Shown here: positions 8,616-21,832 of the stretch, in pieces
How positions within the stretch are numbered: position 1 is the first letter of the stretch
How the letters are laid out: each line of letters starts with the position of its first letter
Origin: an uncultured Clostridiaceae bacterium
GTDB taxonomy: Bacteria; Bacillota; Clostridia; Clostridiales; Clostridiaceae
DNA: 40,000 bases
Reading direction: 5' to 3'
Assembly (NCBI GenBank): GCA_942490885.1
Contig: CALNYT010000002.1
Span: 5,165,024 to 5,205,023, forward strand
Notes under the pieces: model-generated
What the model saw: the letters and a program-made list of their open reading frames with translations, nothing else
What the model was told of the DNA's origin: nothing
The model's database searches: none
Translations under genes and position numbers: made by a program

Positions 8616-8707
8616 GGAGAGATGGTCGAGCTGGCTTAAGGCACCGGTCTTGAAAACCGGCGTGCGTGATGAGCGCACCGTGGGTTCAAATCCCACTCTC
8701 TCTGCCA
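8616..8707 (+). tRNA. tRNA-Ser (anticodon UGA), copy 1
   Basis: Cloverleaf with long variable arm. Anticodon loop CT-TGA-AA between CCGGT/ACCGG. T-arm GTGGGTTCAAATCCCAC. Encoded CCA. Confidence 0.95.
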
Positions 8708-8719
8708 TTTTTTTTATAT

Positions 8720-8810
8720 GGAGAAGTACTCAAGTGGCTGAAGAGGCTCCCCTGCTAAGGGAGTAGGGCGCGGAAGTGTCGCGAGGGTTCAAATCCCTCT
8801 TTCTCCGCCA
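8720..8810 (+). tRNA. tRNA-Ser (anticodon GCU), copy 1
   Basis: Anticodon loop CT-GCT-AA between CTCCC/GGGAG, long variable arm, T-arm GAGGGTTCAAATCCCTC, encoded CCA. Confidence 0.95.
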
Positions 8811-8812
8811 AA

Positions 8813-8842
8813 AACATCCAATCTATATTGGGTGTTTTTTTA
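8813..8842 (+). terminator. Rho-independent terminator after tRNA-Ser unit 1
   Basis: catccaat-ctat-attgggtg followed by a T7 run. Confidence 0.6.
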
Positions 8843-8899
8843 TTATTAAGGAAATTGAAAAATTTCATAAAAAAATATAAAAAAATTTATAAAAAGGTA

Positions 8900-8927
8900 T
8901 TGATTTAATTCAATAAGTTGATATAAT
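8900..8927 (+). promoter_or_regulatory. Promoter of tRNA-Ser unit 2
   Basis: TTGATT (8900-8905), 16-nt spacer, TATAAT (8922-8927). Confidence 0.6.
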
Positions 8928-8948
8928 AAATCTTGTTGTAGGAAATAT

Positions 8949-9040
8949 GGAGAGATGGTCGAGCTGGCTTAAGGCACCGGTCTTGAAAACCGGCGTGCGT
9001 GATGAGCGCACCGTGGGTTCAAATCCCACTCTCTCTGCCA
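8949..9040 (+). tRNA. tRNA-Ser (anticodon UGA), copy 2
   Basis: Sequence identical to copy 1. Confidence 0.95.
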
Positions 9041-9226
9041 TTTTTTTATTTATATTTTATCTAGTAACATTCATTAGTGTAATATATAAATCTACTAATA
9101 ATTTATTAAATACTAAGAAATAACGATTATATTTTATCAATAAAGTTTAATGGATCAAAAGTGTATATTATTATTTTTTTTAAAATGAATCATTAAGAAA
9201 AATGATAAAAAAATAAAAAAAAAGTA

Positions 9227-9255
9227 TTGACTTTATTTTGATAGATTGATATAAT
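9227..9255 (+). promoter_or_regulatory. Promoter of tRNA-Ser unit 3
   Basis: TTGACT (9227-9232), 17-nt spacer, TATAAT (9250-9255). Confidence 0.65.
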
Positions 9256-9275
9256 AAATCTTGTCGTTAGGACGT

Positions 9276-9367
9276 GGAGAGATGGTCGAGCTGGCTTAAG
9301 GCACCGGTCTTGAAAACCGGCGTGCGTGATGAGCGCACCGTGGGTTCAAATCCCACTCTCTCTGCCA
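9276..9367 (+). tRNA. tRNA-Ser (anticodon UGA), copy 3
   Basis: Sequence identical to copies 1 and 2. Confidence 0.95.
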
Positions 9368-9376
9368 ATTTTATAT

Positions 9377-9467
9377 GGAGAAGTACTCAAGTGGCTGAAG
9401 AGGCTCCCCTGCTAAGGGAGTAGGGCGCGGAAGCGTCGCGAGGGTTCAAATCCCTCCTTCTCCGCCA
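9377..9467 (+). tRNA. tRNA-Ser (anticodon GCU), copy 2
   Basis: Same as 8720-8810 except for two substitutions, one in the variable arm (gtgtc to gcgtc) and one at acceptor position 66 (T to C, changing a G-U pair to G-C). Confidence 0.95.
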
Positions 9468-10180: not shown

Positions 10181-10240
10181 TTAATATAAATCAATATAAA
10201 TCAATATAAATCAATATAAATCAATATAAATCAATATAAA
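10181..10240. repeat. 10-bp tandem repeat (tcaatataaa), 5 exact copies plus 1 degenerate
   Basis: Read directly: ttaatataaa, then tcaatataaa five times. The array ends 14 bp before a TTGATT -35-like box upstream of tRNA-Arg. Confidence 0.95.
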
Positions 10241-10297: not shown

Positions 10298-10374
10298 GCA
10301 CTGGTAGCTCAGTTGGATAGAGTAGCTGGCTACGAACCAGTTGGTCGGGGGTTCGAATCCCTTCCAGTGTACCA
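10298..10374 (+). tRNA. tRNA-Arg (anticodon ACG), with its 3' half forming attL of an integrated island
   Basis: GCACTGGTAGCTCAGTTGGATAGAG..., anticodon loop CT-ACG-AA, T-arm GGGGGTTCGAATCCCTT, encoded CCA. Confidence 0.93.
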
Positions 10375-10381
10375 TATAAAA

Positions 10382-10413: not shown

Positions 10414-10420
10414 TGCAAAA

Positions 10421-10481
10421 TAACACAACCGTAACACAACCCAGAAAAAAACATATAAAATAACACAACAAATAACACAAT
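10421..10481 (+). repeat. TAACACAAC direct repeats (candidate integrase arm-type sites), attL side
   Basis: taacacaac at 10421, 10432 and 10461, and taacacaat at 10473. The same pair with 11-bp spacing recurs at 21648 and 21659 near attR. Confidence 0.6.
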
Positions 10482-10514: not shown

Positions 10515-10694
10515 CTATAAGGCAAATAAACTATTAATTTTTTCAACTGCTTTTATTTTTTCCTCTGGCATTACATGAGTATAAATATCAGCGGTTATTT
10601 TTATGTTGCTGTGACCCATTAATATTTGAGCTGTTTTTAAAGGCACATCATTCTCAAACAATCTAGTTGCATAAGTATGTCTTTTATGGTGAGC
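10515..10694 (-). pseudogene. C-terminal remnant (59 codons) of the island tyrosine integrase
   Basis: The minus-strand translation is AHHKRHTYATRLFENDVPLKTAQILMGHSNIKITADIYTHVMPEEKIKAVEKINSLFAL*. It carries the HxxR, GH and catalytic Y boxes but no N-terminal part, and an in-frame TGA lies immediately upstream. A hairpin and T-run follow at 10486-10518. Confidence 0.8.
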
Positions 10695-10800
10695 TCACCA
10701 TAAATAGGCATTATGTGGAGTGTTATATTATGGTGAGTGATCAGTTAAATCCTTATAGTATAAAGACTCAGCATTAAAACACTCACCATAATATATAGGA

Positions 10801-11832
10801 TTATTTACAAAGTTTTTTCAACCAATTCATCAAATCTCCGTCATTTTCCCATTTAGGCAAATCTTCAGTTGTCAACTCAATATATGATTCTTCTAGTGCT
10901 TTTCGTTTCATTTCACTGTCAGCTCTGGCATAGATTTCTGTTGTGCTAATGCTTGTGTGTCCAAGAAAATCACGTATATAAATAAGATTTACTCCTGCTT
11001 GGAGGAGGTGCATTGCTTTGCTATGGCGAAGCACATGTGGTGTTACTGCAAAATCGATACAGAAATCTTTATTATATTTTGACACCTTATCATATTTGCT
11101 TATAATATATGATACGCCCCATCTAGATAGTTTCTTGTGCTGTTGATTATAAAATAGTGCAATATCTGTTTCAGCAGTTCCAAAGTACTTTTTTTGTTCT
11201 GACTGGTAAGATTGTAACAACTTTTGAGTGTTGCCCATAATAGGAACTTGCCTTGTTTTATCACCTTTTCCATGAAGCTTTATGACTGCTGGGGATGTCA
11301 ATCTAACATCCTTCCATCTTAAATCGATTAATTCCTGTACTCTTGCACCAGTATCATAAAGTAAGACTAACAACATTAAATCTCTTCTTCCTTTTATTGT
11401 GTTGATATCTGGCTGCTGAAGAAGGATCTTTATCTCATTAGCTGTGAGATATGGTATCATTGGCTTTGATTTCTTTTTCATCGATATATCTAAAATCTTT
11501 TTCAATTCAAAAAGATTTTCTGGACTTTCCTTTTGTACATATCGAAAAAATGAATGGAGTGCCGCAAGGCGCTGATTTCTTGTGGCAATCGAACATTGCC
11601 TTTTTTCTTCAAGCCAATTGAGAAACTCTATAACCACAGCTTTGGTTATAAGTGAAAGAGTTATATTTTCAATAAGCACTTTTTTATCGGATTCAAAGAA
11701 GATTAGAAATAGTTTGAAAGCATCCCGATAGGAAGCTATCGTATTAACACTGACATTTTTTTGCCCTGGTAGGTACTGTGAAAGAAATTCTGACAGATAT
11801 TTTGGAAAATCATTTTTCTTCATTGTCCGCAT
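10801..11832 (-). CDS. Tyrosine recombinase (third gene of trio)
   Basis: N-terminal SAM-like core-binding region (SYRDAFKLFLIFF, RLAALHSFFRY). Catalytic TGARVQEL, HVLRHSKAMHLL, LGHTSISTTEIYA. The start may be the ATG at 11823 (MKKNDF). Confidence 0.85.
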   Translation of the reverse strand: MRTMKKNDFPKYLSEFLSQYLPGQKNVSVNTIASYRDAFKLFLIFFESDKKVLIENITLSLITKAVVIEFLNWLEEKRQCSIATRNQRLAALHSFFRYVQKESPENLFELKKILDISMKKKSKPMIPYLTANEIKILLQQPDINTIKGRRDLMLLVLLYDTGARVQELIDLRWKDVRLTSPAVIKLHGKGDKTRQVPIMGNTQKLLQSYQSEQKKYFGTAETDIALFYNQQHKKLSRWGVSYIISKYDKVSKYNKDFCIDFAVTPHVLRHSKAMHLLQAGVNLIYIRDFLGHTSISTTEIYARADSEMKRKALEESYIELTTEDLPKWENDGDLMNWLKKLCK

Positions 11833-12808
11833 TCCTTTCCGAAATTAAATATCCAAAAGTAGCTTCAGTTCGTTGTATGATATCAGGGTACAAATCAGCT
11901 GTCAACCGTAAGTAATACTCTGTTGCCCTAAAATCCGAATGTCCTAAATAGGTTGACAAGTAAGGCATAAGATTTGTCAATTCCTTACCTGATAAAACCC
12001 ATTTCTTTAGGCAATGAATAGAATATGTGTGTCTAAAATCATGAACTCTAGGTCCTTTACCTGAATGGGAAATACCTGCTTTCCATAAATAGTCTCGGAA
12101 TCGTCGGTAGATAGTACTTTTATCAATACGTGCACCACTCCATGAACTCTTGAAATAATAAGTATCGTTATCGCTTAATGTATGCAATATTTCTTCGAAT
12201 TTTTTACATCTGTTAATAAGGCTTGTTGCAATGGGAATTATTCTATCTTTGTTATTTTTTGCTTGCAGAATTGTAATAGTTCCTGATTCAATATCTACAT
12301 CTTTACACTTTAGATTTAACGCTTCAGAAAGGCGAAGCCCACTGCCATAAAGTAAACGGAATAATAATGGGTCAATTAAATGTCGGTTACTGTTGTAAGT
12401 AGATGGATATGTATCTATTTCGGTAAATATACGTTTTAGCTCTTCTTCTGAAAAAATATATGGTACAAATGAAGAACGTTTACTTGTTGCAGATTTTTTT
12501 AAGCAAATATATGCAACTAAGCCATTCTTCTGTAAAAACTCAGCAAAACTACACATAATTCTTTCTTTAGCATAATGAGTGGAATCTTTTTCGTAATCTA
12601 TTCCATAGCAAAATGTTTCAACCATTTCTTTACTCAAGTGAGCTCCTATGTATCCATTACTATAACAATAATCATCAAATCTCTCTAACAATCTTTCCTG
12701 GGATTTATACTTAAATCCCACCATATGCATTTCGTTTAAAAATTCTTTTATATATTTAGCAAAGTCACTTTCCCATTTATATTTATTCTTCATATTTGAA
12801 TACCTCAT
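11810..12808 (-). CDS. Tyrosine recombinase (second gene of trio)
   Basis: Catalytic GSGLRLSEAL, HDFRHTYSIHCL, LGHSDFRATEYYL. It overlaps both neighbours. An alternative start lies at 12793. Confidence 0.85.
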   Translation of the reverse strand: MRYSNMKNKYKWESDFAKYIKEFLNEMHMVGFKYKSQERLLERFDDYCYSNGYIGAHLSKEMVETFCYGIDYEKDSTHYAKERIMCSFAEFLQKNGLVAYICLKKSATSKRSSFVPYIFSEEELKRIFTEIDTYPSTYNSNRHLIDPLLFRLLYGSGLRLSEALNLKCKDVDIESGTITILQAKNNKDRIIPIATSLINRCKKFEEILHTLSDNDTYYFKSSWSGARIDKSTIYRRFRDYLWKAGISHSGKGPRVHDFRHTYSIHCLKKWVLSGKELTNLMPYLSTYLGHSDFRATEYYLRLTADLYPDIIQRTEATFGYLISERNADNEEK

Positions 12809-13070
12809 CAGGATCTATTACACATTTACGGAGACCCTCCATATCAATCTTTAGATAGATACTAGTTGTCTGTATATTTTGATGCCCCAATACTTTTGAA
12901 ATAACAGGAAGTGGCGCATTATTGTCAAGCATAGTACGTGCGAGGGAACTTCTTAAAGAATGAAGGCCGCATGCGCTGTCTCGTGGTATTTCTATACCTG
13001 TTAAGGTTATTATTAGTTCTAGGATTAATTTTAAAGGGTTCAAGAAATTCTCATTAGATTTTTTAAGCAT
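12783..13070 (-). pseudogene. Tyrosine recombinase (first gene of trio), C-terminal fragment only
   Basis: The 95 aa contain only the HSLRSSLA...LGHQNIQTTSIYL catalytic C-terminus. A stop lies 27 nt upstream of the opportunistic ATG at 13070. Confidence 0.75.
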
Positions 13071-14919
13071 GGATAGTTGTAAAAAAATATTTTATTCACA
13101 CTATAATGTAGAGAAAGATGATGAAAGACTGGAGAAAATAATTAATCTTGCAGGAAAACATACATTAACAGTGGACTTACTAGCTCATACAGCAGAAGAG
13201 GCTACATTATCAATAAGTTCACTGTATCAAAAGCTTAAAGAAAAAGGATTTAATTTAGATGGAATAATTAATGAGGAAATTAGCACTTTTTGGGACAATG
13301 AAAAAGAAAGCTTAACACTTTTTGAATATCTTTTAAAAGTATTTGATATAGCAAAAGTTTCTAATGAAGAAAAGGAAGTTCTAATGAATCTATCTATTTT
13401 ACCGTCCATAGATTTTCAGATTAATGAGATAAAAGAATGGTTGAAATTAGAAACTAACAAAAGCATAAATTCTTTAGTCAAAAAAGGATGTCTTAATAAA
13501 TCTGGATTTAATATAAAAATTCATCCATTAATTCAAGAAACAATAAGATATAAGTTGAATCCTAATACAGAAAAATGTAATAAACTAATTGAAGAGATTT
13601 CTTTTAGATTAAGAAATAAAGTAGATGAAGGGGGATTAAGTAAAAAACGCTATATAACACTTGGAGAAAGTATTTTAAATTATTTAAATGAAGATAATCT
13701 TAGTATTGCTTTATTAGTAAACAATTTAGCAATTACACTTGATGAAATAGGACAATCCAAAGAAGCATTAAAATATCAATTAAGAGACCTTGCAATTAGG
13801 GAAAAAGTGTTAGGTAAGAGTCATCCACAAGTAGCTATTTCATATAATAACTTGTCTTTGATTTATAGGTCTCTATGGCAACTTGAAGATGCGTTAAAGA
13901 TGCAATTAGCAGGAATTGAAATTTTAGAAAATTCGGTGGATGGAATTTATTCAGAATTGGGAATTTTTTATAATAATATAGCATCAATATATCATGATTT
14001 AGAAGAGTTGGAAATAGCTTTTGATTATCAATTACAAGCTATTGAAATAAGAACGCTTGTATTTAAAGAAACGGGAGCAGTCAAAGATGAAGCAGAATTA
14101 GCTAATTCATACAATAATTTATCACTAATTTTGAGTGATTTAGGACAAATTGAAGAAGCATTACATTATCAATTGAAAGCTGCTGAAATATTTGAAAAAG
14201 TTTTAGGTAAAAAACATCCAGATCTAGCTATTTTATATGATAATTTAGCAAGTAGCTATAAGTATCTAGGCGAGTTTGAGAATGCGTTAGAGTTTTCAAA
14301 AAGAGCAGTTGATATATTTGAAGAAGTGTTGGATAAAAAACATCCAGAGTTAGCTTCTTCATATAATAATTTAGCAACGATATATAATGATTTAAATGAA
14401 ATTGAGAAGGCATTGGAATTTCACTTAAAAGCAAGTTCAATTAGAGAGAAAGTATTGGGGATGAATCATCCAGATTTAGCATCTTCATATTGCAACTTAT
14501 CTATGATTTATAAAGATTTAGGACAGCTTCATAAGGCACTTGAAGTTCAATTGAAGTCTATAGCAATTTATGAAAAGGTATTAGATGAAAAGCATCCTGA
14601 ATTGGCAACGCCATATAATAATTTATCTATGATTTATATTGAATTTGGAGAATTAGAAAAATCATTGAAATTTCAATTAAAGGCAATAGCTTTGTTTGAA
14701 GGAATAATGGGTCAATGCCATCCAGGATTAATTATTTATTACCATAATTTATCATTAATATACGTAGAAATGGGAAAATATGAATTAGCACATGAATATT
14801 CTGTTAAGGCTGTAGAGATTTTAATGAATACTTATCCTAAAGGAAATTCAACTTTAAATCATATAATTAAAAATCTTGAACATATAGAAGAAATATATAC
14901 TAACATAAATATACATTAA
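13069..14919 (+). CDS. TPR-repeat protein with ARC/winged-helix remnant (N-terminally truncated STAND NTPase)
   Basis: About 10 TPR_10/12-type repeats (recurring A.SYNNL..IY..LG....AL.....A..I.EKVLG..HP). The first ~170 aa resemble the ARC region (LAGKHTLTVDLLA, IHPLIQETIRYKL, an MHD-like motif). There is no P-loop. The ATG shares 2 nt with the opposite-strand ATG of the truncated recombinase. Confidence 0.7.
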   Translation: MDSCKKIFYSHYNVEKDDERLEKIINLAGKHTLTVDLLAHTAEEATLSISSLYQKLKEKGFNLDGIINEEISTFWDNEKESLTLFEYLLKVFDIAKVSNEEKEVLMNLSILPSIDFQINEIKEWLKLETNKSINSLVKKGCLNKSGFNIKIHPLIQETIRYKLNPNTEKCNKLIEEISFRLRNKVDEGGLSKKRYITLGESILNYLNEDNLSIALLVNNLAITLDEIGQSKEALKYQLRDLAIREKVLGKSHPQVAISYNNLSLIYRSLWQLEDALKMQLAGIEILENSVDGIYSELGIFYNNIASIYHDLEELEIAFDYQLQAIEIRTLVFKETGAVKDEAELANSYNNLSLILSDLGQIEEALHYQLKAAEIFEKVLGKKHPDLAILYDNLASSYKYLGEFENALEFSKRAVDIFEEVLDKKHPELASSYNNLATIYNDLNEIEKALEFHLKASSIREKVLGMNHPDLASSYCNLSMIYKDLGQLHKALEVQLKSIAIYEKVLDEKHPELATPYNNLSMIYIEFGELEKSLKFQLKAIALFEGIMGQCHPGLIIYYHNLSLIYVEMGKYELAHEYSVKAVEILMNTYPKGNSTLNHIIKNLEHIEEIYTNINIH

Positions 14920-15243: not shown

Positions 15244-15693
15244 AGGCTAAAAAATAATTAAGCATATTTGTTACTCGTGTAACAAGGGCTTGATAATCCT
15301 AATAAGATGAATATGAGTTAAGCTTTATTAATTTTTATAGTAAAGCTAATGGAAAAAGTAGATAAAACATTGATTGTTAAGGAAACCGCCAATTTCTTTA
15401 TTGATGTTTTATCTTTCATATTAACCCTCCTGAATAGTGTTTAATCTAATTTATGGAATCTCATATAAAATTGTTCTGTCGATATTCAACGTTAACGATA
15501 TATAGTACATGTTTCATTACACCTTATATTACAAGTAACTTTGAGAATTAAAATCCCTAAAATACTAAGGTTGCAAAAAATGTAAAACGAATTTTTCTTT
15601 AATTTTTAGTTAAACGATATATAGTATAAAGTATAAAGAGAATATAGAATATAATTAACACTTTCCTAATATGATTTAGTGGAGGTGATATTA

Positions 15694-16185
15694 ATGGAGG
15701 AATATAATTTTAAAGTTGAAGATGTTTTAAAAATTATTAAGAAAAAGAAGATTAAATGTTTGATGTGTAGTAAATCAGAATTTTTTATATTAGTTAATGA
15801 TGATATTTATTACAATGTTTTAAAGGAGAATTATAATTGGAATACATTATGGAAAGTAATAAATACAATTAAATTAGAATGTCAGGATTGTGGTTTTGTA
15901 ATGGAGTATAATCCATATTTATTAATGATGAGATTTATATACCAGAACTCAAAAGTACATGGAGATGAAAATGCGCCATTAAAAAAAAGGCAAAAAGACT
16001 TTGTAAAATACTTAGTTGAGTTTGGAAATATTGAGAAGGCAGCAATAATGGCAGGATATCCAAGTCAAACTGCACATGCAACTGGTACTAAATTAATGAG
16101 TTCCTGTAAAATAATAAATGCAATTAATAAAGAACTTAAAATACAGAATGACAAGAAAAATGATATGGACTTAGATAAGCAATAG
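15694..16185 (+). CDS. Zn-ribbon protein with C-terminal terminase-small-subunit-like HTH
   Basis: CLMC...CQDC pairs lie in the N-terminal half. The C-terminal KKRQKDFVKYLVEFGNIEKAAIMAGYPSQTAHATGTKLM resembles the Terminase_2/TerS HTH. RBS GGAGGTG lies 6 nt before the ATG at 15694 (the ORF track starts at GTG 15679). Confidence 0.6.
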   Translation: MEEYNFKVEDVLKIIKKKKIKCLMCSKSEFFILVNDDIYYNVLKENYNWNTLWKVINTIKLECQDCGFVMEYNPYLLMMRFIYQNSKVHGDENAPLKKRQKDFVKYLVEFGNIEKAAIMAGYPSQTAHATGTKLMSSCKIINAINKELKIQNDKKNDMDLDKQ

Positions 16186-20169: not shown

Positions 20170-20859
20170 TTGATTAATGTATATTGTGATGAAAGCTGTC
20201 ATTTAGAAAATGATAATAGTAATATAATGGTTATAGGTGGAGTTTGGTGTGATAAAAATAAAGTAAAGGTGATATCCCAAGAAATAAAAAATTTAAAAAT
20301 TAAGCATAATATAAAGCCTAATTTTGAGATCAAATGGGTAAAAGTGTCTAACAATAAAATTCAGTTCTACTCAGAATTGTTAAAACTTTTTTTCGATAAT
20401 GAGAATTTACATTTTAGGTGTTTAATAGTATCAGACAAATCAAAATTAAGACATAAAGAATTTGGACAAGACCATAACACTTTTTATGATAAGATGTATT
20501 ATCAAATGCTATGTAGTATATTGGATTCTAATGAAAGTTATAACATATATATAGATATAAAGGATACTCATACACACGAAAAATGTAATGTTCTTAAAAT
20601 GTATTTATGTAATAAATATAGAGATTATGAGGCAAAAATAATTAAAAAAATTCAGCCAGTAGATTCGTCAGAGATACAATTAATGCAATTAGTAGATATT
20701 TTAATTGGAGCAGTATCGTATTTAAATAGGGGATTAAATACAAGTGATGCTAAATTAAGATTAGTGAATGAAATGAAAGAATATTCAGGGTTGAGTTTAA
20801 ATCATTCTACTAGTTTATTTTCGAAAAAAGTGAACATTTTTTTATGGGATCCATCTTAG
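20170..20859 (+). CDS. DUF3800 domain protein
   Basis: N-terminal VYCDES (the Y.DESG-type motif) and C-terminal QLMQLVDILIGAV (the Q.aD motif), both typical of DUF3800. RBS AGGAGGTG, TTG start. Confidence 0.7.
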   Translation: MINVYCDESCHLENDNSNIMVIGGVWCDKNKVKVISQEIKNLKIKHNIKPNFEIKWVKVSNNKIQFYSELLKLFFDNENLHFRCLIVSDKSKLRHKEFGQDHNTFYDKMYYQMLCSILDSNESYNIYIDIKDTHTHEKCNVLKMYLCNKYRDYEAKIIKKIQPVDSSEIQLMQLVDILIGAVSYLNRGLNTSDAKLRLVNEMKEYSGLSLNHSTSLFSKKVNIFLWDPS

Positions 20860-20877
20860 GAAAAACGAGGTGATTTA

Positions 20878-21408
20878 ATGAGTGATAATGAAATTTCATG
20901 TAGATGGTTATCTCCTTTGGTTTTAATGGATGACTTTGGTGTAAATTGGTATAAATATGATAATTATCTTTACCAAATATTTAAAAAAGATTTTATAGAT
21001 AGTAAGCCATACTATAAAGAAAAGCCAGTAAATATAAGAAAACATCCTACAGTTGCAGATAAAGAGCAAGCATATTTTCATGTAACTTCTGTAGATTCAT
21101 CAAAAACACCAGAGGATGCAAATGATAGAATTCCGGATTTAAGAAGATGTGAAAGAGTAGCGTGGATAAGACAGATTATTGAAAATCATTTGTGTAGTGA
21201 TAATTGTAATGGATGTAATAAAATAAAATATTGGCCTGAATTGTATAAAGGGAAAAGAAGATGGCATTTACTATTTGAGGATTATAAATTTTTGGTAATT
21301 ATAGAAGAAAGACAAGATTATAATTTATTAATATCTTCATTTTATATTGAAAGAGATCACCAATTAAAAAAGAAGCTTAAGAAATATGAGAAATATAAGA
21401 TATTATAA
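20878..21408 (+). CDS. Hypothetical 176-aa protein, probably co-transcribed with the DUF3800 gene
   Basis: Starts 18 nt after the DUF3800 stop, with RBS GAGGTG. Contains a CSDNCNGC cluster and a basic C-terminal tail. A hairpin follows at 21420-21448. Confidence 0.6.
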   Translation: MSDNEISCRWLSPLVLMDDFGVNWYKYDNYLYQIFKKDFIDSKPYYKEKPVNIRKHPTVADKEQAYFHVTSVDSSKTPEDANDRIPDLRRCERVAWIRQIIENHLCSDNCNGCNKIKYWPELYKGKRRWHLLFEDYKFLVIIEERQDYNLLISSFYIERDHQLKKKLKKYEKYKIL

Positions 21409-21778: not shown

Positions 21779-21822
21779 CGAACCAGTTGGTCGGGGGTTC
21801 GAATCCCTTCCAGTGTACCATA
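21779..21822 (+). repeat. attR: duplicated 3' half of tRNA-Arg(ACG)
   Basis: Exact 44-bp copy of 10333-10376. The 5' half of the tRNA is absent here. Confidence 0.9.
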
Positions 21823-21832
21823 AAGAATTGAT

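Follow-up and report, generated by a model that had tools for sequence, protein, structure and literature searches.

How did three tyrosine recombinase genes come to be wedged between the last codons of an integrase and a STAND gene that has lost its beginning, within a genomic island of an uncultured Clostridiaceae bacterium? This question is raised by a locus in a 40,000-nucleotide stretch of contig CALNYT010000002.1 (assembly GCA_942490885.1, positions 5,165,024 to 5,205,023 of the forward strand), hereafter the window, to which the coordinates below refer. An initial annotation of this DNA, made from the sequence alone, had interpreted the three genes as a recombinase in trio (RIT) element that had inserted into, or replaced, the island integrase and had then been truncated. 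The history that we consider quite probable is more specific, namely, that a RIT transposon inserted precisely at the codons for the catalytic arginine and histidine of the integrase, via a site containing two recombination cores, and was subsequently curtailed by an illegitimate deletion.

The three minus-strand open reading frames (ORFs) occupy positions 10801-11832 (343 amino acids), 11810-12808 (332 amino acids) and 12783-13070 (95 amino acids), with overlaps of 23 and 26 nt, as initially annotated; the overlap lengths vary with the choice of start codons, and the public gene call for the second protein is 327 amino acids long. All three match the Pfam Phage_integrase profile, the 95-amino-acid ORF only at positions 120-170 of 172. 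The first in coordinate order, ritC, is intact and combines a SAM-like N-terminal domain with the catalytic domain (Phage_integrase, 6.6e-31; Phage_int_SAM_1, 4.1e-10), and the second, ritB, is intact as well (2.9e-23). Alignment of the third (blastn and mafft) with intact elements from a Logan contig (L007), a Saccharofermentanales metagenome-assembled genome (L008) and Clostridium lacusfryxellense DSM 14205 (L009, 78% RitB identity, an element of 3.45 kb on contig NZ_JAHLEB010000114.1) identified positions 12783-13000 as the last 71 codons of ritA (residues 345-415 of 415). The intact relatives display the order ritA-ritB-ritC with the same overlaps and flanking inverted repeats of 28-118 bp, and encode RitA of 408-436, RitB of 320-332 and RitC of 340-342 amino acids, which bears out the assignment of the trio to the RIT elements. 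The genes in the window are, likewise, adjacent, co-directional and overlapping, and encode recombinases of distinct subfamilies in the order RitA-RitB-RitC. RitB is 76-84% identical, over its full length, to RitB of the intact elements; its relatives number in the thousands, many of them on contigs of about 3.45 kb. The best hits are collinear with the trio of Sinorhizobium meliloti pSymA: RitA with the first gene (3.5e-29, obtained with the RitA of an intact relative), RitB with the second gene (3.1e-26) and RitC with the third gene (3.6e-63, 35% identity).

The catalytic residues are retained in RitB (GLRLSE, HDFRH, EYY) and RitC (GARVQE, HVLRH, EIY). A RitA with two core-binding domains and a RitC with an extra C-terminal helix are traits of the RIT family (PMC8138268), and the approximately 35 residues that follow the catalytic tyrosine of RitC are compatible with such a helix. 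The RitA remnant, in which box II and the catalytic tyrosine survive but the N-terminal domains and box I are missing, retains only HSLR and the tyrosine of the R...H-x-x-R...Y signature, so that the copy in the window cannot be a functional element. No second copy of the trio was found in the same genome at the DNA or the protein level, and the ends of the element were, therefore, defined from relatives in other genomes. The segment 10706-10793 matches the left inverted repeat of L008 in the inverted orientation and, thus, represents the right inverted repeat; the left one is deleted. Altogether, the segment 10684-13000 is the right-hand two thirds of a RIT transposon: a terminal palindrome and the right inverted repeat, followed by ritC, ritB and what is left of ritA, the 71 codons at its 3' end. 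L008, which represents this lineage in intact form, spans about 3,472 bp from arm to palindrome; 2,317 bp of such an element are left here and about 1.15 kb are missing.

The right end of the element reveals where it had inserted. Reading the minus strand outward from ritC, one encounters the right inverted repeat (within 10704-10793), with the recombinase arms TTATGGTGAG and TTATGTGGAG at 10711-10720, 10728-10737 and 10782-10791; a 7-nt internal spacer, ATAGGCA (10704-10710); a perfect 20-bp palindrome (10684-10703) formed by two back-to-back copies of the arm, TTATGGTGAG followed by CTCACCATAA; a single base; and then AGA CAT ACT TAT GCA ACT, which encodes RHTYAT. The motif TTATGKKGAG has five matches in the window, all within 108 bp (10684-10791), compared to 0.47 expected per 40 kb, and none of 100 shuffled sequences contained five or more. 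We assign the palindrome to the element because, from one RIT lineage to another, its sequence changes together with the arm motif. Next to it lies the putative 6-bp crossover spacer, AAGACA on the minus strand (10678-10683), which comprises one base, the arginine codon and the CA of the histidine codon.

Beyond the palindrome, the minus strand encodes the remnant of the island integrase, 55 codons (RHTYATRLFEN...SLFAL) and a stop codon (10515-10682), which match positions 133-170 of the Phage_integrase profile (E-value 4.7e-10). This remnant aligns with the C-terminus of an intact 389-amino-acid integrase located at the same tRNA-Arg in a genome of the same genus (G002). The intact protein reads FHDLRHTFATRLFE, and the remnant, thus, starts exactly at the box II arginine. 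The open frame 10515-10694, which had been annotated as a 59-codon integrase stub, indeed represents the integrase C-terminus (profile positions 130-170), but only 55 of its codons belong to the integrase, the first four (AHHK) being read from the RIT palindrome. Similarly, the integrase was indeed cut by the trio, not by a loosely defined insertion or replacement, however, but by a site-specific one at the Arg-His codons. We also considered whether the stub might be part of the RIT itself; this was ruled out, given that stubs adjoining different copies share only about 30% identity and have the base composition of their hosts. An exact second copy of the 20-bp palindrome, with no RIT attached, is present elsewhere in the same genome (G000:C2:3679889-3679908; L047, 1890-1909), where the reversed control pattern has no matches. 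This solo palindrome is flanked by two diverging integrase tails, RHTHATIYYRQT and RHTYATQLFEAN, and hence at least three integrase genes of this genome have been cut at the Arg-His codons.

Relatives of this RIT lineage show the same junction: they occupy the same pair of codons in dozens of unrelated tyrosine recombinase genes. The intact element of L008 separates ...VHGLRH from RHTYVTLL... and has CAGGCA at either side; joining the two flanks reconstitutes an empty site with the continuous integrase reading VHGLRHTYVTLL. Integrase tails starting at RH adjoin the palindrome in L010, L044/L045, L058 and L059, and the RIT of L059 has a palindrome plus an integrase tail at either end; in L011, L046 and L061, a RIT without a palindrome lies between two integrase heads that end at the arginine. 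In Pfam searches, five tails begin at position 132-133 of the profile and two heads stop at 133, and all 12 aligned tails start at RH, with the junction at the same position. Relative to the target, the palindrome is invariably C-terminal. The trio occurs in both orientations, with the palindrome on its right (the window, L008, L012, L014, L019, L026) or on its left (L010, L015, L018, L021, L058). L008 and L014 have internal and flanking spacers that are exact reverse complements of each other; the two differ in the window (ATAGGCA versus AAGACA), L015 and L058. A genome of a different genus (G020; L048, G020:C9, 4686-4705) contains an integrase tail that is 91% identical in amino acid sequence to the one in the window and adjoins a variant solo palindrome, TTATGGGGAG followed by CTCCCCATAA; on the opposite side of this palindrome is the tail of a different integrase. 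The tRNA-Arg 3' fragment next to it has the orientation opposite to that of the full tRNA, which lies at a distance of 1.6 kb, pointing to an inversion at that site.

An unbiased scan of metagenome contigs, for the palindrome alone, yielded 80 loci (L076-L155) with 84 sites, of which 32 have an arm of the window type on one side. On the opposite side of these 32 palindromes, we observed an integrase tail starting at RH in 22 cases, a tail with a mutated arginine codon in two, non-coding DNA in one and a flank too short to classify in another one; the remaining six are discussed below. Integrase C-terminal parts beginning at the Arg-His codons thus adjoin 24 of the 32 ends, which indicates that the RIT lineage of the window homes into rival integrase genes. 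The spacer next to the tails consists of any base, an arginine codon (AGG, AGA, CGC or CGT) and CA. At six further sites, a solo palindrome separates two tails; in all, the sample includes 38 distinct tails.

Comparison of the anatomies of the inserted copies suggests how these arrangements might come about. The excised form would have a symmetrical joint of two inverted cores, each composed of an inverted repeat arm, a 6-bp spacer and one half of the palindrome, with the halves abutting in the middle. Either core could recombine with the target at the spacer, that is, the arginine codon and the following CA, which would account for both orientations of the trio. Insertion would split the rival integrase between the catalytic arginine and histidine and so kill it, and the inserted end would retain one complete core capable of attacking a second integrase gene. 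Two products would follow from such a second attack: a solo palindrome with an integrase tail on either side, and a RIT that lacks the palindrome and is flanked by two integrase heads. Both are observed, the former in G020 and the genome of the window, and the latter in L011, L046 and L061. The frequent difference between the internal and flanking spacers suggests that the internal spacer is carried over from the previous site.

Several observations weigh against this scheme. A close relative of the window element (L012, RitB 56% identical) resides in an M23 peptidase gene, between GFR and VHP, and six of the 32 metagenomic ends belong to sub-lineages with other spacers and other targets. The target spacers differ at up to three of the six positions, given the alternative arginine codons AGG, AGA, CGC and CGT, so that a recombinase tolerant of spacer heterology would be required. 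In the window itself, the left flank, which most likely held the N-terminal part of the integrase, is gone. Finally, target specificity and movement of RITs are listed as 'not tested' (PMC10214605, Table 1), and the proposed mechanism is derived from comparative anatomy.

More distant RIT lineages (RitB 31-49% identical) hit other genes. At five loci (L014, L015, L017, L018, L019), the element is inserted in an IstB-like ATPase gene, in the Walker A codons between GxxGxG and K[TS]H, and in L026, it interrupts the IstA gene of an IS21 element between LVPD and NLKTG. The same 20-bp palindrome is found in RIT lineages with different inverted repeat arms (for example, TTATGTGCAT and TTATGCTGAG), spacers CGGCCA, TCTGAC and CCGCCG, and non-integrase targets; the palindrome, therefore, is more conserved than the choice of target. 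We are inclined, with somewhat less confidence than in the history of the locus itself, to view RITs as homing transposons with a symmetrical double-core site, each lineage of which is tuned to the codons for a conserved catalytic motif in a gene of a rival mobile element, and which spread by disabling mobility genes and thereby fix islands. The tuned codons would be Arg-His in the lineage of the window, and those for the Walker A motif of IstB and the DDE motif of IstA in the other lineages. Some RIT copies, in addition, adjoin truncated genes of group II intron reverse transcriptases/maturases (L051, from the Bacillus sp. S3 plasmid NZ_CP039728.1, and L059/L060).

At the other side of the remnant, the break is sharp. 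Homology to intact RIT elements, in both the DNA and the protein sequence, begins at 12998-13000 (GIEIP..., residue 345 of the 415 of RitA), and the frame that is open on the plus strand from 12964 aligns with NB-ARC/TPR proteins of the STAND type from VKVIISSR (13000) onwards. The deletion junction, thus, falls at 12997-13003, where the tetranucleotide CCTG/CAGG can be assigned to either parent, so that microhomology at the joint is possible. The STAND gene (13000-14919, plus strand; TPR_12, 5e-80) aligns from residue 132 of P0123, an 801-amino-acid NB-ARC domain protein of Clostridium cellulovorans, and from residue 117 of P0128 (766 amino acids). Its identity to P0123 is 46% in an alignment of 650 residues that runs from the sensor-1 region across the TPR array. 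The NB-ARC domain spans residues 26-185 in P0123 and 15-127 in P0128; compared to such proteins, the copy in the window lacks the first 116-131 or so codons, including the P-loop and the Walker B region. The open frame does not qualify as a P-loop NTPase, its first 339 residues giving no match to NB-ARC or AAA, and the break is accompanied by no plausible start codon or ribosome-binding site. The loss of an N-terminal NTPase from the TPR gene, which the initial annotation had proposed, is thus borne out, as its closest full-length homologs carry an N-terminal NB-ARC NTPase; nor do intact trios start with a first ORF of about 95 codons.

The point of truncation has to be moved, however. It had been placed at the ATG codons 13069 (plus) and 13070 (minus), the former being the internal start of the annotated 616-amino-acid TPR ORF. 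These codons do share 2 nt, within a CATG, but the break is about 70 nt away, and with the junction at 12997-13003, both are located in STAND-derived DNA. By the same token, the 95-amino-acid ORF, described as the catalytic C-terminus of the first trio gene, does include a C-terminal remnant, but only 71 of its codons derive from ritA, the other 24 being antisense STAND DNA.

The history of the locus after the insertion would then involve an illegitimate deletion of at least 2.5 kb, perhaps via the 4-nt CAGG microhomology, that took ritA codons 1-344 and the left inverted repeat (about 1.15 kb), whatever lay to the left of the element (most likely, the N-terminal part of the integrase, about 330 codons) and the first 116-131 or so codons of the STAND gene. 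The N-terminal part of the integrase, residues 1-338 of RitA and residues 1-131 of the STAND protein were not found elsewhere in the 97.5%-complete assembly, and the search for RitA in this genome recovered only residues 339-414; the missing parts, therefore, were lost, in keeping with a deletion. We also looked for intact islands or STAND genes more similar to those of the window, but the best homologs of the STAND gene were only 46-53% identical, too distant to reconstruct the sequence before the deletion or the exact microhomology. A relatively recent arrival of the RIT fits its features, given that ritB and ritC are full-length and 76-84% identical to active-looking relatives and that the G+C content of the RIT segment (0.33-0.35) exceeds that of the surrounding island (0.26). 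Having lost its left end and RitA, the element is now immobile. The island, for its part, has no integrase of its own and, plausibly, is fixed for this reason, although intact related integrases, encoded in the same genome at 3.73 and 4.23 Mb, could act on it in trans.

Other sequences of events have to be weighed against insertion followed by deletion. The integrase could have been broken already, leaving a solo palindrome that served as an empty docking site for a later re-entry of a RIT, in which case the left flank need not have held the N-terminal part of the integrase. Solo palindromes of this kind do exist, including the one next to the near-identical stub in G020, with a different integrase tail beyond it, and the second one in the genome of the window, and the palindromes with tails on both sides of the RIT in L059 could be understood in the same way. 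We nevertheless regard this scenario as unlikely: the arms of the two palindromes differ in a compensated manner, with GGTGAG in the window and GGGGAG in G020, as befits separate insertions by two RIT variants, and simple insertions with both halves of the target are known (L008, L058). About equally doubtful is that the STAND gene, the integrase and the RIT decayed in several independent events, or by an inversion followed by loss, instead of one deletion. A single genome cannot serve to count events, and G020 demonstrates that inversions occur at such sites, but in the window the two truncated genes abut directly, with no scar between them, ritB and ritC are still intact frames, and none of the three missing parts occurs in the assembly. 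A single deletion is, then, the most economical reading, and it is to this extent that we retain the claim of the initial annotation that one event removed the 5' end of the RIT, the rest of the integrase and the NTPase domain; the absence of these parts is observed, and the single event is what we infer.

A further suggestion of the initial annotation was that the truncation records an adjacent deletion made by the RIT itself, through site-specific recombination of one of its sites with a pseudo-site in the STAND gene. Rearrangements at RIT sites evidently happen, as indicated by the solo palindromes and the inverted tRNA fragment in G020, and the junction tetranucleotide CAGG resembles the spacer CAGGCA of L008. 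The breakpoint, however, lies within the ritA coding sequence, 1.15 kb from where the left end would be and at no recombination site, with neither an arm-like 10-mer nor a spacer motif nearby, all five arm matches of the window being confined to 10684-10791; this deprives the suggestion of support. In more than 40 loci, junctions made by RITs are all at the spacer next to an arm, and none of the loci examined has another RIT that breaks off at this ritA codon and continues into unrelated DNA. Moreover, the event destroyed ritA. We consider a deletion of this origin highly improbable, and continue to favor an illegitimate one.

RIT elements of Cupriavidus metallidurans CH34, C. necator pHG1 and rhizobial plasmids, which reportedly are treated also by Van Houdt (2009) and Ricker (2013), are the closest known counterparts of the element in the window. 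Like those (PMC3414803), the lineage of the window is characterized by adjacent, co-directional, overlapping A-B-C genes, inverted repeats, a size of about 3.5 kb and the lack of cargo. Unlike them, it belongs to Bacillota and Bacteroidota, with proteins 25-37% identical to the alphaproteobacterial ones, and its genes overlap by 20-26 nt rather than 4-8 nt; in the copy of the window, moreover, the left end and the greater part of ritA are gone. The open literature describes the trio and the inverted repeats and lists RIT target specificity as untested (PMC3414803, PMC8138268, PMC10214605), and no account of RIT insertion at integrase Arg-His codons or of the junction palindrome was found in these sources (Ricker 2013 was outside the scope). 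The element in the window is, thus, a member of the RIT family, albeit a decayed one.

Tn554 and the SEs are, likewise, transposons with multiple tyrosine recombinases and site-specific insertion, in which 6 bp of the flank travel from the donor site to the new site (PMC10214605), a carry-over that resembles the difference between the internal spacer of RITs and the spacer of the current target (ATAGGCA versus AAGACA in the window). These transposons differ from RITs in that they employ recombinases of other subfamilies and accessory proteins (TnpC, Srap/Tfp), and their targets are single chromosomal sites, as opposed to the coding sequence of a protein motif common to many genes; no back-to-back palindrome of arms is reported for them. 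A different analogy is with homing introns and inteins. These elements insert at the codons of conserved catalytic motifs, a short conserved coding target that, hence, recurs in many genomes. By comparison, a RIT would destroy the host gene, and would rely on tyrosine recombination instead of a homing endonuclease and splicing.

The RIT remnant sits within an 11.4-kb island integrated in tRNA-Arg(ACG) (10298-10374, plus strand; ARAGORN), the 3' part of which forms attL. A 49-nt direct repeat (10333-10381 and 21779-21827, 96% identity) places the tRNA 3' end at both island borders, the distal copy being attR (plus strand), which closes the island; the integrase next to the tRNA, as in other islands of this type, is represented by the 55-codon remnant. 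Probable arm-type binding sites of the integrase, direct repeats of the TAACACAAC type (10419-10481), lie between the tRNA and the integrase stop codon, and are conserved in related islands as well (G020 and G004). Just upstream of the tRNA-Arg is a four-fold tandem repeat of ATCAATATAA (10200-10239), and farther upstream there is an array of five tRNA-Ser genes (8616-9467; anticodons TGA, GCT, TGA, TGA, GCT). Among the other genes of the island, those for a DUF3800 protein and the following 176-amino-acid protein (20170-21408) match the candidate defense pair PDC-M04A (3.9e-88) and PDC-M04B (2.2e-62) of PADLOC, so that, besides the broken STAND gene, the island holds at least one intact candidate defense module. 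The C-terminal third of a 168-amino-acid ORF (15679-16185) matches Terminase_2, the domain of small terminase subunits (2.2e-11), a hint that the island may be a phage satellite-like element.

Taken alone, the window yields a modest result, a transposon remnant in an island that has itself decayed, with the breakpoints corrected. Together with its relatives, it provides more. RITs are widespread, and their movement and choice of target have never been demonstrated; this set of loci defines the target to the base, the Arg-His codons of integrase genes, as well as the architecture of the site and a set of predicted recombination products that can be tested. If this interpretation is correct, RITs would be parasites of other mobile elements that inactivate their integrases, which would explain some of the 'fixed' genomic islands and the orphan integrase tails encountered by annotators, and the genome that contains the window would hold at least three integrase genes killed by RITs.

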